From Chlamydiota bacterium (GTDB lineage Bacteria; Auribacterota; JACPWU01): a stretch of DNA of 32,000 nt. The notes under the pieces were generated by a model, which was not told the origin of the DNA, did no database searches, and saw nothing but the letters and a program-made list of their open reading frames with translations. Below are positions 1,197 to 26,574 of this stretch, piece after piece. A program made the translations under genes and the position numbers. The stretch spans positions 30,001 to 62,000 of the forward strand of contig JACPWU010000002.1 in assembly GCA_016196885.1 (NCBI GenBank), in the 5' to 3' direction. How positions within the stretch are numbered: position 1 is the stretch's first letter; each line of letters begins with the position of its first letter.

Positions 1197-1261
1197 CGTA
1201 CAGCGTGCAGAAAACAAACCTTCCTTTTTTACTGTCCGCTCCGCGCTGAACGCTATACGCT
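1197..1261. repeat. Heptamer-repeat inverted array, AGCGNNC / CTNNACG family
   Basis: Left arm gcgtacagcgtgcag. Right arm ctgtccg ctccgcg ctgaacg ctatacg ct has a 7-nt period. The arms are partly complementary (gcgtacagcg vs cgctgaacgc, 9/10). Starts 8 nt after the hpnH stop. Confidence 0.6.
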
Positions 1262-1433
1262 TCTTTTCAACTTTTTCTCAAGAAAAACGCACAGTTTTGT
1301 ACGAAATTTGCATGAGAACCCTTCAAGCAAAATAAATTGTATTAAATTCAAAAATATTTTTTTACCTCTTCTATCTCAATCGTGTCTATCTCAATGGGTA
1401 GATGGTGTAACGAGCAAGCCTCAGGAGGCAGTG

Positions 1434-1640
1434 ATGAAACCATTAAAAGTTTCACAACATGCTGAAGGTGAGGTTATTGCGTATTCTAAAGCCTGTCCGG
1501 ATTCTTCCTCTCTTCAGGATCAACTTCATCTCGAAAATCTTCGGTTTTTGAAATCTGAGGGTATTCTTTCTAAACATGATCTTTTGGATCTTTCTGTCGT
1601 CATTCTGCGGACAAATTCAGAAGAATTTAAAAAAGTTTAG
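1434..1640 (+). CDS. Hypothetical small protein (68 aa) upstream of the ECF sigma factor
   Basis: AGGAGG RBS (1423-1428) lies 5 nt before the ATG. The longer 1170..1640 ORF in the track runs through the repeat hairpin and an AT-rich spacer, so only this internal start is plausible. No recognisable domain. Confidence 0.4.
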   Translation: MKPLKVSQHAEGEVIAYSKACPDSSSLQDQLHLENLRFLKSEGILSKHDLLDLSVVILRTNSEEFKKV

Positions 1641-1681
1641 TTAAAATTTGCCGGGGCGCGTTTTTTAGAAGGGGGCGAGAC

Positions 1682-2245
1682 ATGGAAGACTCACCGCGAG
1701 ATCGGGAATTACTAAGGATTTTTCTCAAAGGAGGCGAAACGGGTTTCGATGAGTTGGTCTTGAAATATCGAAATCGTGTTTATAACACACTCTTCAGTCT
1801 TTTACGGAGTCGGGACTTGGCATGGGAAGGGGCGCAAGATGTTTTTTTAAAGGTGTATCGCGAGCTAAAAGATCGAGAGGACGAATCCATTTTGGTGAAG
1901 GCATGGGTTTTTAGGATCACGTTAGATGAGGGCTTTGATCTTTTGAAAAGGGTTAGCAAACAGGTGAAAGTGGCTTTTGGCACAGGTGAAATGTTGGAGG
2001 CTGTCAACGGTTCGAAAGAATTAATTTTCTGGGATGAAGGTGAAGAATGGGATCGCGACCAGTTTAGTCAAGCTTTGGGGAAGCTTTCTAAACTCCAAAA
2101 GGCGATTGTGGTCCTAAGACATTTCAGTGGGCTTTCTTTTGGAGAGGTTGCAGAGGTGCTGGCTCGAGACGAGGAGTCTGTGAAGGCCAATCATTATGAT
2201 GCAGTTTCTCGCTTGAGGGAGATTTTGAAAAATGAAAGCACATAG
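1682..2245 (+). CDS. ECF-type RNA polymerase sigma-70 family factor
   Basis: 187 aa. Region-2-like FDELVLKYRNRVYNTLFSLL...AQDVFLKVY and region-4 HTH LQKAIVVLRHFSGLSFGEVAEVLARDEESVKANHYDAVSRLR. AGGGGG RBS. Confidence 0.8.
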   Translation: MEDSPRDRELLRIFLKGGETGFDELVLKYRNRVYNTLFSLLRSRDLAWEGAQDVFLKVYRELKDREDESILVKAWVFRITLDEGFDLLKRVSKQVKVAFGTGEMLEAVNGSKELIFWDEGEEWDRDQFSQALGKLSKLQKAIVVLRHFSGLSFGEVAEVLARDEESVKANHYDAVSRLREILKNEST

Positions 2246-3377
2246 TCTCGCACACAAATGGGATGATGAGGGGTGGAAAAATCCTAGAGGGGGGCCTTCT
2301 CATGTTCATGAGTCCGGGAAGAATTGTGAAATTTGCACTTCCGAATACCAGGCAAATCTTCAACTTGCGGATCAATTGAACAAGCGGGGCATTCATCAGG
2401 TGCGTTTCGGGAATGATCCGAACGATCCTTTCATGCTTACGCTTCGCAGGAGAATCAATCAGGAAGTTCGAAGCGGTCAGAAAAAGCAATTGGCCTTGTG
2501 GATGCTTTTGGGAAAGGTGGAGGCAGCTGTCATTGGCCTTTTAATGGTAGGTCAGGTTTTGGCCTTGCAGAGCAGTCGGGCCGACCAGGCACGAATTGAT
2601 TTTCTTTTGGGCAGGCAAACGATTTTAGAAAAAACCATCTCCTATTTGAAAGAACAAGTCTCCGTCGCCTCTACTACACTTTCTCAGACGATCGTTTCAA
2701 AAAGTGTAGTCGTTGAGGAAGGTGGAGTTGAAGAGTCGGATGAAGGAAAGGGGGAAGTACCTCCAGAGGTACGTTCTTCATCGCAGGAGGAAATCAAGTT
2801 GAATCCAATTCGAAAAGATATTCCACCCTTAAGATCGCCGCAGGTTTTAAAATCATCTTCATTCAATTTTATTTCTGATTTAAAAGGAAACCCTGTGATG
2901 CGTGTAGATTCTTTCAAGCCGGAGTTCATCAAGGATTTGAAAATGGGTTTGGGAAAAGACTTCAAATCTTTTATCCAGGACTCTATTTTTCCCATTGAAA
3001 ACGTCGAAAATATTGAGAAAAACTTGAAGGTGCAAAATGCAAATTTAAGAGAAGGTCTTTCGAGGGAGAATGCCTCTTTGAGAAGTTCGTTGAATGTTCC
3101 ACAGCCGAGTGTGGACACTTCGAAAAGTGACTTTCGAACTTCTCAATCTCAAGCCTTACCTTCTGGAGGCAAGAAAAGTGAAAAGGATGGCCCTGCCGTT
3201 TCTCAAGTTCAGGATATTTCCAATATTCCTAGACCCCCCGGGTTGGCCAAGCCTGATTCAGGTGATGTACGTCAGTCGGTTCTGGAGTCCAATCCCTCTG
3301 ATAACCATCCTCGGTTGAATGAGTTAAAAGATAAGCTTTCTCCATCTCAAGGAACCTTAAAGGATCATCAATCCTGA
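2232..3377 (+). CDS. Putative membrane-anchored anti-sigma factor
   Basis: Overlaps the sigma gene by 14 nt. N-terminal His...CxxC (HVHESGKNCEIC, not a canonical HxxxCxxC). One TM helix (LALWMLLGKVEAAVIGLLMVGQVLAL). Ser/Pro-rich extracytoplasmic tail. The function is inferred from position. Confidence 0.5.
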   Translation: MKAHSLAHKWDDEGWKNPRGGPSHVHESGKNCEICTSEYQANLQLADQLNKRGIHQVRFGNDPNDPFMLTLRRRINQEVRSGQKKQLALWMLLGKVEAAVIGLLMVGQVLALQSSRADQARIDFLLGRQTILEKTISYLKEQVSVASTTLSQTIVSKSVVVEEGGVEESDEGKGEVPPEVRSSSQEEIKLNPIRKDIPPLRSPQVLKSSSFNFISDLKGNPVMRVDSFKPEFIKDLKMGLGKDFKSFIQDSIFPIENVENIEKNLKVQNANLREGLSRENASLRSSLNVPQPSVDTSKSDFRTSQSQALPSGGKKSEKDGPAVSQVQDISNIPRPPGLAKPDSGDVRQSVLESNPSDNHPRLNELKDKLSPSQGTLKDHQS

Positions 3378-3462
3378 TCTTTTTTTTCTTCCTTTTTTAT
3401 TTCATCTTTCCCCTTAAATCAGTTAGAATGCCCCCTTTAGTTCAAAAGGGAAAGGGGTTAGA

Positions 3463-25986: not shown

Positions 25987-26110
25987 GACCTCTGAAAAAG
26001 GTCCATCTGCTGCGTTGCCTGCTTCGCTCAGTCGTGCGGCGTACCGGAAAACGTACGCCTCCTCCTTCGCTTGCAGGCGCCTTGCATCTGGGACCTTTTT
26101 GAGAGGTCTC
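25985..26110. repeat. GC-rich 126-nt insert bounded by 20-nt inverted repeats (element B)
   Basis: gagacctctgaaaaaggtcc (25985-26004) against ggacctttttgagaggtctc (26091-26110), 19/20 complementary. Apical helix ggcgtac/gtacgcc (26038-26059). The left repeat overlaps the TGA stop at 25984-25986. Confidence 0.75.
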
Positions 26111-26139
26111 TAGAAGTTGGGGTTTTTCAGAGGTTTCAA

Positions 26140-26189
26140 GTTGTAAGTTTTAAGTTTAAAGGAGTTTATTTTCACTTAAAATTTACAAC
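26140..26189. repeat. AT-rich hairpin abutting the ftsB stop codon
   Basis: gttgtaagttttaagt (26140-26155) pairs with acttaaaatttacaac (26174-26189), 15 Watson-Crick pairs plus one G-T on the + strand. No clear T-run on the minus strand. Confidence 0.5.
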
Positions 26190-26483
26190 CTATAACTGGT
26201 TTTTCTCTTTCTCCTCATCAAATTTGTATATGATTTCCTTCGGTTTAGACATCCCGAGTTCTTCTCTCGCGACTTTTTCAACGTAAAGGGGGTTGTTTTT
26301 TAATTTGAAAATTTCTTCTTGAAGGTTTTGGTTTCTAACTTGAAGTTGTTTAACCTCTTCATCCAACGCCTTCATCTGACGGTAGATTTGGGTCAGATGA
26401 AGAAAATTGGGTGAAAAAAGATAAATGAGGACAGAAAGAAGAGCGACAGAGAGAACAATGGTTTTCCAACGATCAAGTCTCAT
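26190..26483 (-). CDS. ftsB: Septum formation initiator FtsB/DivIC family
   Basis: 97 aa. N-terminal TM helix, coiled coil (LDEEVKQLQVRNQNLQEEIFKLK), then NNPLYVEKVAREELGM. Lies downstream of eno, a common arrangement. Confidence 0.8.
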   Translation of the reverse strand: MRLDRWKTIVLSVALLSVLIYLFSPNFLHLTQIYRQMKALDEEVKQLQVRNQNLQEEIFKLKNNPLYVEKVAREELGMSKPKEIIYKFDEEKEKNQL

Positions 26484-26490
26484 AGAAAAT

Positions 26491-26574
26491 AGCGTTCAGC
26501 GTACAGCGCTCAGCGGTCAGAAAAAAACTTGTTCTGTATAAACTGTACGCTATACGCTAAACGCTGTACGCTGT
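26491..26574. repeat. Heptamer-repeat inverted array, AGCGNNC / CTNNACG family
   Basis: Left arm agcgttc agcgtac agcgctc agcggtc ag. Right arm ctgtacg ctatacg ctaaacg ctgtacg ctgtg. cagcgtacagcg (26498-26509) pairs perfectly with cgctgtacgctg (26562-26573). Lies between eno and ftsB. Confidence 0.8.

Follow-up and report, generated by a model that had tools for sequence, protein, structure and literature searches.

Seven-base tandem repeats, mostly paired as inverted arrays, in the intergenic spacers of an Auribacterota genome

Why should the spacers between housekeeping genes, built from unrelated sequences, repeat themselves at intervals of seven bases? The question is raised by a 32,000-nucleotide stretch of contig JACPWU010000002.1 (positions 30,001 to 62,000, forward strand; the whole stretch is hereafter called the window) from an uncultured groundwater bacterium. 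Judged by isocitrate dehydrogenase (ICDH; 78% identity), the genomes closest to it are metagenome-assembled genomes (MAGs) of Candidatus Auribacterota. An initial inspection of the letters alone (hereafter the sequence-only reading) had described degenerate heptamer repeats throughout its intergenic DNA, mostly as inverted arrays at gene 3' ends. Here we report that seven is the only strong repeat period in the window, that eight of the loci have the potential to fold into long hairpins, and that arrays of the same kind recur in unrelated bacteria.

Seven-base periodicity and unit families

In sliding segments of 28 nt with at least 22 of 28 self-matches, period 7 was found at 17 positions and every other period from 3 to 15 at none. 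Segments of 21 nt (at least 16 of 21 matches) yielded eight arrays at period 7, all of them intergenic, with one array at period 8 and none at the remaining periods. A detector requiring four units with at least four invariant columns found 10 arrays at period 7 versus 0-1 at periods 5-10, and all 10 lie in intergenic DNA, which accounts for 3,550 of the 32,000 bases (11%) of the window (p ~3e-10). Tandem Repeats Finder reported period-7 arrays of 2.1-5.3 copies at 11494-11570, 11715-11733, 20495-20524, 20853-20869, 26133-26161, 26491-26520 and 26543-26574. Overall, the period-7 signal is clear in 8 of the 22 spacers and weaker in two more, and the description of these repeats as pervasive in the intergenic DNA of the window is borne out.

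The units fall into five families in the window: CAGCG+NN (also written AGCGNNC), CGTAC+TT, TTTGGAT, CCAATGA and GTTNTAA. CGTACTT units are found at four loci and AGCGNNC units at three, and these two commonest families have a CGTAC core in common. The families are real, as the sequence CGTACTTCG has 14 matches with at most one mismatch versus 2.2 expected, all of them within 10187-10237, 11494-11571, 13112-13127 and 23753-23761, while AGCGNNCAGCG has 16 such matches versus 2.9 expected, 13 of which lie at the three AGCGNNC loci. Conservation is uneven along the units. Among 20 AGCGNNC units, conservation is 95-100% over positions 1-4 and 50-75% over positions 5-7 (heterogeneity p = 5e-6), and among 25 CGTACTT units the CG is near-invariant (p = 1e-3), although this measure is partly biased by the way in which units are recognized and defined.

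The arrays do not stop at the ends of the window, and the refuting condition set in the sequence-only reading, no enrichment of period-7 arrays beyond it, is not borne out on this contig. Flanking sequence was taken from contig JACOUD010000070.1 (93 kb; MAG GCA_016178005.1), of which positions 17,499-67,204 were covered and in which the window corresponds to approximately 27,336-59,335. The ~17.7 kb of flank contains five more arrays at four more loci and adds the families GTGAGNN and GGGTCAA/CTTGCCC, giving a density of ~0.3 arrays per kb over the covered ~50 kb, where CCAATNN and GGGTCAA/CTTGCCC are each present at two loci. In the same contig beyond the window (L086 14856-14896), a called 105-aa gene on the opposite strand, annotated as "PIN (weak)", has a CTTGCCC array inside it, which means that the gene was miscalled or else that this array is one of the rare within-gene cases.

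The heptamer loci are not an assembly artefact, because Logan assemblies of run SRR12113387 are base-identical to window positions 254-11627 and 26111-29885 and to the upstream flank. No strain-level variation in unit number was seen among the other assemblies of the organism that were compared, all of which are base-identical.

Inverted arrays, hairpins and gene ends

The window has a GC content of ~44%, a GC skew that is positive throughout and a majority of its genes on the plus strand. These are housekeeping genes, among them those for radical-SAM/DUF3463, AsmA-like, aminotransferase, ICDH, AhpC, LuxC, LuxE, enolase and DivIC proteins, together with tRNA-Asp (11581-11657) and tRNA-Phe (13027-13101). 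Only the two tRNAs matched in an Rfam search of the window at the gathering score; no family matched the heptamer arrays. The heptamer loci are given below, with folding energies (dG) in kcal/mol and z values relative to shuffled sequences.

1194 to 1261, plus strand: AGCGNNC (CAGCGNN) hairpin; dG -22.3, z -3.0 (region 1190-1270).
10187 to 10237, plus strand: CGTACTT hairpin in the aminotransferase/ICDH spacer (76 nt); dG -27.4, z -4.9 (region 10178-10253).
11493 to 11572, plus strand: CGTACTT hairpin in the ICDH/tRNA-Asp spacer (91 nt); dG -39.0, z -6.1 (region 11490-11580).
11659 to 11739, plus strand: TTTGGAT / ATCCAAA hairpin in the tRNA-Asp/AhpC spacer (92 nt); dG -25.1, z -4.7 (region 11658-11749).
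13111 to 13145, plus strand: single direct CGTNNTT array with no partner and no hairpin; z +0.5.
20453 to 20524, no strand assigned: AGCGNNC hairpin in a divergent region; dG -33.3 on the plus and -34.7 on the minus strand, z about -6 (region 20440-20535, plus-strand z -6.1).
20838 to 20950, plus strand: CCAATGA / TCATTGG hairpin; dG -37.4, z -2.9 (region 20837-20960).
23748 to 23765, plus strand: marginal CGTACTT member of ~1.5 units, with CGTACTTCG exact at 23753-23761; no hairpin, z +0.5.
26127 to 26197, no strand assigned: GTTNTAA hairpin; dG -27.4, z -3.1.
26488 to 26576, minus strand: AGCGNNC hairpin in the enolase/divIC spacer (97 nt); dG -40.0, z -6.4 (region 26484-26580).

The GTTNTAA locus at 26127-26197 had been missed by the sequence-only reading. 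The claim that most loci are inverted arrays with long hairpins holds for eight of them (z -2.9 to -6.4), but not for those at 13111-13143 and 23748-23765, which are single. The eight inverted pairs have 2-6 units per arm across an AT-rich loop of 12-37 nt, with fold energies of -19 to -40 kcal/mol, and an A or T run of 6-8 bases is present in six of the nine loops examined.

Within this common plan the individual loci vary considerably. At 1194-1261 the left arm has two units (TGGCGTA CAGCGTG CAG), the AT-rich loop is ~21 nt with a T6 run, and the right arm has four units (CTGTCCG CTCCGCG CTGAACG CTATACG CT) followed by the tail TCTTTTCAA; the locus starts 5 nt past the radical-SAM/DUF3463 stop codon (1187-1189). 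The hairpin at 10187-10237 contains a perfect 16-bp stem (10187-10202 with 10215-10230), has CG at every seventh nucleotide over both arms and is without a U-tail. The hairpin at 11493-11572 opposes five units to six reverse-complement units around a perfect inner helix of 13 bp, ends in the tail AGCTTTTCGG and occupies the spacer from the ICDH stop codon (11487-11489) to tRNA-Asp (11581). Its neighbor at 11659-11739 begins 2 nt past the tRNA-Asp 3' end and stops 11 nt short of the AhpC start codon; it has an A7 run in the loop, and periods 7 and 8 are mixed. The single array at 13111-13145 (CGTTCTT CGTATTT CGTGCAT CGTTGTT CGTTAA) lies in the 55-nt spacer between tRNA-Phe and the convergent LuxC stop codon.

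In the second half of the window, the locus at 20453-20524 has two units, a 25-nt loop with a T8 run and four units; its left edge and the start codon of gene 18972-20435 (minus strand) are 18 nt apart, and it lies 79 nt upstream of the plus-strand gene 20603-20836. The long, degenerate and imperfect hairpin at 20838-20950 begins 2 nt past the stop codon of a 77-aa gene and is followed by a T6 run. The marginal member at 23748-23765, 6 nt past a stop codon, has a period-7 score equal to background and is recognizable solely by its shared 9-mer. The GTTNTAA locus is flanked by convergent genes, and its units (GTTTCAA GTTGTAA GTTTTAA GTTTAAA, 26127-26161) have their partner at about 26176-26197, in overlap with the divIC 3' end. 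Finally, the locus at 26488-26576, bounded by the stop codon of enolase (26581) and the start codon of divIC (26483), has four units versus four across a 22-nt loop with an A7/T7 run, and on its sense (minus) strand it forms a 19-bp stem, including G-U pairs, with the tail ATTTTCTAT.

The arrays nearly fill the short spacers between co-directional genes, and seven of the eight inverted pairs sit 2-10 nt from a stop codon or tRNA end. A location at gene 3' ends is therefore correct for most loci, the exceptions being the divergent 5' regions, which account for two of the ~13 loci on the contig (20453-20524 in the window and L083 9344 in the flank). As an observation on the gene order, three genes (a 68-aa ORF, an ECF sigma factor and a 381-aa ORF, window 1434-3377) are inserted between the radical-SAM and AsmA-like genes relative to two syntenic genomes, L003 and L004, which lack them (cf. 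L004 3527-3698); the hairpin at 1194-1261 sits at the left edge of this insertion.

Two statements of the sequence-only reading on transcription termination were too strong, namely that most of the hairpins lack a T-run and that they are something other than ordinary terminators. On the sense strand, TTTT occurs within 10 nt after the stem in four of the eight window hairpins, as opposed to 12% of background 10-mers (p ~0.009). Since their loops exceed 8 nt, the heptamer hairpins are not called by a consensus terminator scan, which did call plain hairpin-plus-T-run terminators at 48-89 and 7678-7708. The U-runs on half of the hairpins are compatible with a terminator role, which this subset may have.

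Relatives, other genomes and known heptamer repeats

Comparison with L003 and L004 provides a view of how the arrays come and go. Both genomes, whose ICDH is 78% identical to that of the window, keep the gene order radical-SAM, AsmA, LysM, DUF5679, NDK, aminotransferase, ICDH, tRNA-Asp, AhpC, tRNA-Phe and LuxC, and at four orthologous sites (aminotransferase/ICDH, ICDH/tRNA-Asp, tRNA-Asp/AhpC and tRNA-Phe/LuxC) their spacers of 24, ~85, 30 and 16 nt are array-free, versus 76, 91, 92 and 55 nt with arrays in the window. No arrays were found at the orthologous sites of L003, L004, L088, L090 or L091. The search of related genomes that had been proposed did reveal a partial array in L089, an 81% relative which has ~4 units of the right arm of locus 10187-10237 in common with the window (21 of 25 bases identical). 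It also revealed what appear to be seeds: the 30-nt spacer of L003 and L004 orthologous to 11659-11739 holds a single copy of GGATTTT..AGATT, and the relatives' spacers also hold TACGG, a single copy of unit sequence. Elsewhere, L003 and L004 contain three heptamer arrays each and none at other periods (four-unit detector). Because the spacers of the relatives are array-free yet contain seeds, we suggest that the arrays grew in place from local sequence, with fast turnover inside the clade, and that they did not arrive by insertion of a mobile element.

Spread of miniature mobile elements by a transposase, in the manner of repetitive extragenic palindromic (REP) and REPIN elements or of MITEs (miniature inverted-repeat transposable elements), would account for the palindromic architecture, the intergenic location, the same unit families at several loci and the breaking of short-read contigs at repeated intergenic elements. 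We regard it as highly improbable, as conservation among loci of the same family is limited to the units, with different loops and flanks, the number of units varies from arm to arm and from locus to locus, and the seeds and the partly shared array point to growth in place. REP elements, moreover, are without an internal 7-nt periodicity, and no transposase or REP-associated tyrosine transposase (RAYT) came up either among the Pfam annotations of genes called on the ~50 kb of contig or in a scan of 10 window proteins.

One replacement may have had consequences for a neighboring gene. The ICDH/tRNA-Asp spacer of L003 and L004 (11233-11330) is promoter-like, with a sigma-70-like TTGACT-17-TAGATT and no array, and in the window the heptamer hairpin stands in its place, ending 8 nt short of tRNA-Asp. 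Because the hairpin takes the place of the promoter-like sequence, we infer that the window tRNA-Asp is transcribed through the hairpin or from within it, from a promoter upstream of or inside the hairpin. The window tRNA-Asp encodes its CCA end, and those of L003 and L004 do not. Two further observations were made on these relatives. In L003, an Auribacterota genome, the stretch 11330-11751 has a partial 5' half of tRNA-Asp, next an inserted ORF containing GIY-YIG-like motifs (MWYVYVLYSK..YIGFT..) and last a complete tRNA-Asp, which looks like a mobile insertion or homing-endonuclease-type element at the tRNA gene. In L004, inverted CTTAGCC / GGCTAAG arrays ~230 nt apart (7112-7141 and 7372-7403) enclose the 132-nt DUF5679 gene.

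The ICDH-anchored loci of 80 other genomes (1.18 Mb) contained 30 arrays at period 7 versus seven or fewer at any other period from 4 to 12, and an invariant-column detector gave 58 at period 7, 5 at period 6 and 18 at period 8. A reverse-complement partner was present within 130 nt for 14 of the 30 arrays (47%), versus 5 of 150 controls (3%; p = 4e-9). The same period-7 excess in unrelated genomes upholds the proposal that the shared period reflects a general generating or selecting process. The arrays are unevenly distributed: 59 loci of the 80-genome sample contained none, while their density is high in some Acidobacteriota (L034, 0.55 per kb; L064, 0.8 per kb), a Dissulfuribacterales MAG, a "Heliobacteriaceae" MAG and Brocadiales-type Planctomycetota, and the density among related genomes ranges from 0 to 0.8 per kb. 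Units are specific to a genome and recur at several loci within it. Two Blastocatellia MAGs independently have heptamer arrays right after the ICDH stop codon (L064 3123, L081 11218). A universal heptamer motif across phyla was considered and rejected, as the units are diverse and the frequency of those containing CAG/CTG (~31% versus ~20% expected) is unconvincing given the non-independence of units within a genome.

Inverted CAGCGNN arrays were also present in at least 120 metagenome contigs with GC contents of 47-77%, as compared with an estimated chance expectation of ~0.01. The CAGCGNN family is thus widespread, and we make no claim that it is special among heptamers; the matched contigs listed (L092-L171) also bear heptamer arrays of other families. 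The CAGCG core is constant over these contigs, with the NN positions tracking GC content, but the core was fixed by the scan pattern itself. Among the matches listed, a long ORF stops within 40 nt of an arm in 47 of the 54 contigs with enough flank, a figure inflated by spurious high-GC ORFs, and a stop codon that keeps phase with the units was counted in 29 of 63 cases versus 9 expected (p = 1.5e-9). This phase signal is due in part to an outermost unit that reads TAGCGNN instead of CAGCGNN. In the window, stop codons are in phase at two loci, 1194-1261 (-14; 1187-1210) and 11493-11572 (-7; 11487-11507). The phase suggests that arrays start at gene 3' ends or have overwritten them. In some other low-GC metagenome contigs the arrays of the AGCGTAC family are far longer. 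One of them (L150 4655-4773) has a 21-nt higher-order repeat, AGCGTAC AGAAGAC AGCGTAC, present ~4 times, and in L120 (342-415 and 1519-1592) an array runs straight into its own reverse complement, almost loop-free.

How do these arrays relate to heptamer repeats that are already known? Heptanucleotide short tandemly repeated repetitive (STRR) sequences, with units STRR1-3, were reportedly described by Mazel et al. in 1990 from a heterocystous cyanobacterium. By rotation and reverse complementation, the CCAATGA unit of the window is TTGGTCA, which we take to be STRR2. The dominant units of the window, CAGCGNN and CGTACTT, are not known to be among the classic STRR units, and its host, unlike theirs, is not a cyanobacterium. 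In other respects the STRR analogy was well chosen: in both cases degenerate tandem 7-base units form several families per genome, each recurring at several loci, with many dispersed intergenic copies (PMC2670836; PMC2408588). In filamentous cyanobacteria, STRRs whose 7-bp repeats form hairpins are described as "not unusual", one example being that between the co-transcribed hupS and hupL, for which transcript stabilization has been proposed (PMC2670836). The window arrays differ in being short (2-6 units) and mostly paired as inverted arrays.

An architectural parallel is found in Xanthomonas, where Rehm et al. (2015; PMC4692102) reported 186 and 183 (GGGANTN)n repeats in two genomes, of which 70 and 75 form convergent pairs, with a mode of four units and a strong bias to positions at or overlapping stop codons. 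Those repeats have a conserved core, differ in length between the species, and most of their sequences are transcribed. The window shares with them, and with the Nostoc GGGGA(C/T)T repeats, the combination of a core with variable positions, rarity within genes and a unit number that varies between related species (PMC4692102), and its eight pairs of 2-6 units per arm near stop codons resemble the close convergent arrays of Xanthomonas. In contrast to the paired families of the window, which are without GGG tracts and unable to form G-quadruplexes, the Xanthomonas units (GGGAATC among them) are G-rich and do form them. Most sites are also kept between the two Xanthomonas species, whereas window relatives at ~80% protein identity are mostly array-free. 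The inverted architecture, which the sequence-only reading had thought not typical of STRR-type repeats, has therefore been described before, both in Xanthomonas (PMC4692102) and in filamentous cyanobacteria (PMC2670836).

The TAACTGA direct repeats of Beggiatoaceae, cyanobacteria and Bacteroidetes (MacGregor, 2015; PMC4679880) likewise have 2-6 units, are nearly all intergenic and patchy across phyla, and are mixed with other heptamers in some genomes; unlike the window arrays, they are nearly all direct (1 inverted in 170), have a single dominant unit in that genome and lie just upstream of start codons in a fixed orientation. Heptamer simple sequence repeats (SSRs) are over-represented in many bacteria, for which polymerase slippage was proposed (Mrazek et al., 2007, as cited in PMC4692102), and there are heptamer-derived satellites such as (GATAGRA)n in Chloroflexus (PMC6749651). 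The excess of period 7 over neighboring periods is reproduced in our 80 genomes, but such surveys, as summarized there, count perfect or near-perfect SSRs, without stress on inverted pairs or stop-codon phase. REP/REPIN elements and Rho-independent terminators are similarly intergenic imperfect palindromes at 3' ends or between cistrons that are able to stop exonucleases or RNA polymerase. They differ from the window loci in having no internal 7-nt periodicity, REP elements also in having a fixed consensus of ~20-35 nt and a RAYT transposase where window loci of one family have just heptamer units in common, and terminators in having short GC-rich stems and loops of 3-8 nt versus 12-37 nt. Taken together, the window loci are a new host example of STRR-type heptamer arrays in the broad sense.

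Origin and role of the arrays

The explanation that we think on balance the probable one, if with modest confidence, is that the arrays are grown by slippage, confined to spacers by coding constraint, transcribed with their neighbors and retained as stem-loops that tolerate shifts of register. Short degenerate 7-base microsatellites would arise and lengthen in situ through replication slippage and would survive only in non-coding spacers, because a 7-base step breaks the reading frame. Each genome would carry a few unit families, the unit being a 4-5-base core plus 2-3 variable bases, and the typical layout would be an array facing its own reverse complement over an AT-rich loop. As the spacers are short, the arrays would be transcribed along with the flanking genes and would fold into long stem-loops. 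Those with a U-run (about half) would most likely be intrinsic terminators, possibly leaky, while the others would most likely be intercistronic or 3'-end hairpins that punctuate or protect transcripts by blocking 3'-to-5' exonucleases, a role that REP elements have and that has also been suggested for the hairpins of cyanobacterial STRRs.

A number of observations weigh against this explanation. When both strands of 12 loci were folded, the sense strand was the more stable in three and the antisense in four, which gives no G-U signature of RNA-level selection. When the order of units was permuted in one arm, the folds were equal to or better than those of the real order at most loci, and in the arm permutation test only locus 10187-10237 and L083 8923 were near-exact inverted duplicates; pairing therefore rests on the conserved cores, register shifts are tolerated and the arms are not exact mirror copies. 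Loops of 12-37 nt are atypical for intrinsic terminators, and the high-GC CAGCGNN hairpins among the metagenome matches listed have no U-tails. The divergent loci do not fit a 3'-end role, and the arrays at 13111 and 23748 have no inverted partner at all. In addition, slippage from random seeds explains neither the conservation of cores relative to variable positions nor the recurrence of identical units at 3-4 loci, and simple slippage leaves both the stop-codon phase and a constant arm polarity unexplained. With regard to the latter, orientation within a family is constant in the window, where the leading arm is in every case the CAGCG or CGTAC one and single arrays share the direction of the flanking genes. 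The CAGCG arm is 5' of the loop in all six CAGCGNN hairpins that were not selected by the scan (window 1194-1261, 20453-20524 and 26488-26576; L120 898, L120 1552 and L170 4643).

The insensitivity to unit order and to strand is what would be expected if the arrays were neutral mutational by-products, that is, heptamer microsatellites that are prone to slippage, accumulate wherever selection permits (in spacers, as far as the stop codon) and have no RNA or protein-binding role, their inverted layout arising by template switching or fold-back synthesis in replication. The fast turnover and the empty orthologous sites of the syntenic relatives, the wide density differences between related genomes and the presence of arrays in 3', 5' and convergent contexts alike are consistent with this view, as is the fact that arrays reach the stop codon in phase, which is expected if coding constraint alone limits growth. 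We nevertheless consider it unlikely, though deserving of serious weight, based on the conserved cores, the same units at several loci per genome, inverted pairing at 47% versus 3% in controls, the constant arm polarity (6/6) and the enrichment of U-runs after stems.

Several of these same features would be understandable if the arrays were bound by a protein that recognizes a core of 4-5 bases at 7-base intervals, with the hairpin being secondary. Such a reader could be a cold-shock-domain or OB-fold protein on single-stranded RNA or DNA (~7 nt per domain) or a nucleoid- or iteron-type binder of duplex DNA. A core with variable spacer positions, genome-specific families, constant polarity and the existence of partnerless single arrays (13111; L030, L060, L064) all agree with this, as does the constancy of the CAGCG core over contigs of 47-77% GC, with the reservation made above about the search pattern, and CspB is known to bind heptamer direct repeats, one protein per heptamer (reviewed in PMC4679880). 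Yet the presence of at least six unrelated cores in one 50-kb stretch would call for several readers or for a single, highly unspecific one, the arrays have no linked candidate gene, and the inverted layout, with its strong duplex potential, would compete with single-strand binding. On these grounds we judge protein binding as the primary role to be decidedly improbable.

A broader proposal is that inverted heptamer arrays are one class of element across phyla, produced or recognized by a conserved machine whose step or footprint is 7 nucleotides, and not by generic slippage. It is suggested by the core conservation, the constant arm polarity and the stop-codon phase, since simple slippage does not explain them; the genome-specific families would be a further rule of such a class. 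We think it quite unlikely. If it were true, the stop-codon phase would mean that arrays are seeded at stop codons or that gene 3' ends are overwritten, with a one-base change of CAG to TAG giving a new stop.

The window also contains intergenic elements of other kinds. A second class, without 7-nt periodicity, is represented at 22081-22263, 25976-26146, 29845-30055 and 30894-31110. These elements are ~170-200 nt long, have terminal inverted arms of 20-32 nt that are ~86-133 nt apart, fold at -0.38 to -0.45 kcal/mol per nt and coincide with short-read contig break points; those at 29845 and 30894 share a GC-rich core of ~120 nt. They had no match in the Rfam search and could be MITE-like or structured RNAs. 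Separately, the divergent region between the class-III aminotransferase and AAA_14 genes holds, at 17638-17671, a perfect AT-rich palindrome of 34 nt, GGAATAATATGCGATTATAATCGCATATTATTCT, with a T7 run after it. This could serve as an operator or as a bidirectional terminator.

Knowledge of heptamer repeats in bacteria goes back to 1990, and by itself the window only adds one more host, an uncultured groundwater bacterium. In practical terms, such loci inflate intergenic spacers, replace promoters (as in the ICDH/tRNA-Asp spacer) and break short-read assemblies, and annotators of MAGs should expect them. Beyond the single host, the comparisons made here add that the period-7 excess and the inverted pairs recur in Acidobacteriota, Planctomycetota, Desulfobacterota and many soil metagenome contigs; that the units combine a conserved core with variable spacer positions, a phase with the stop codon and a fixed arm polarity; and that what appears to be the birth of arrays in place, from seeds still visible in relatives, is accompanied by their turnover within a genus-level clade.

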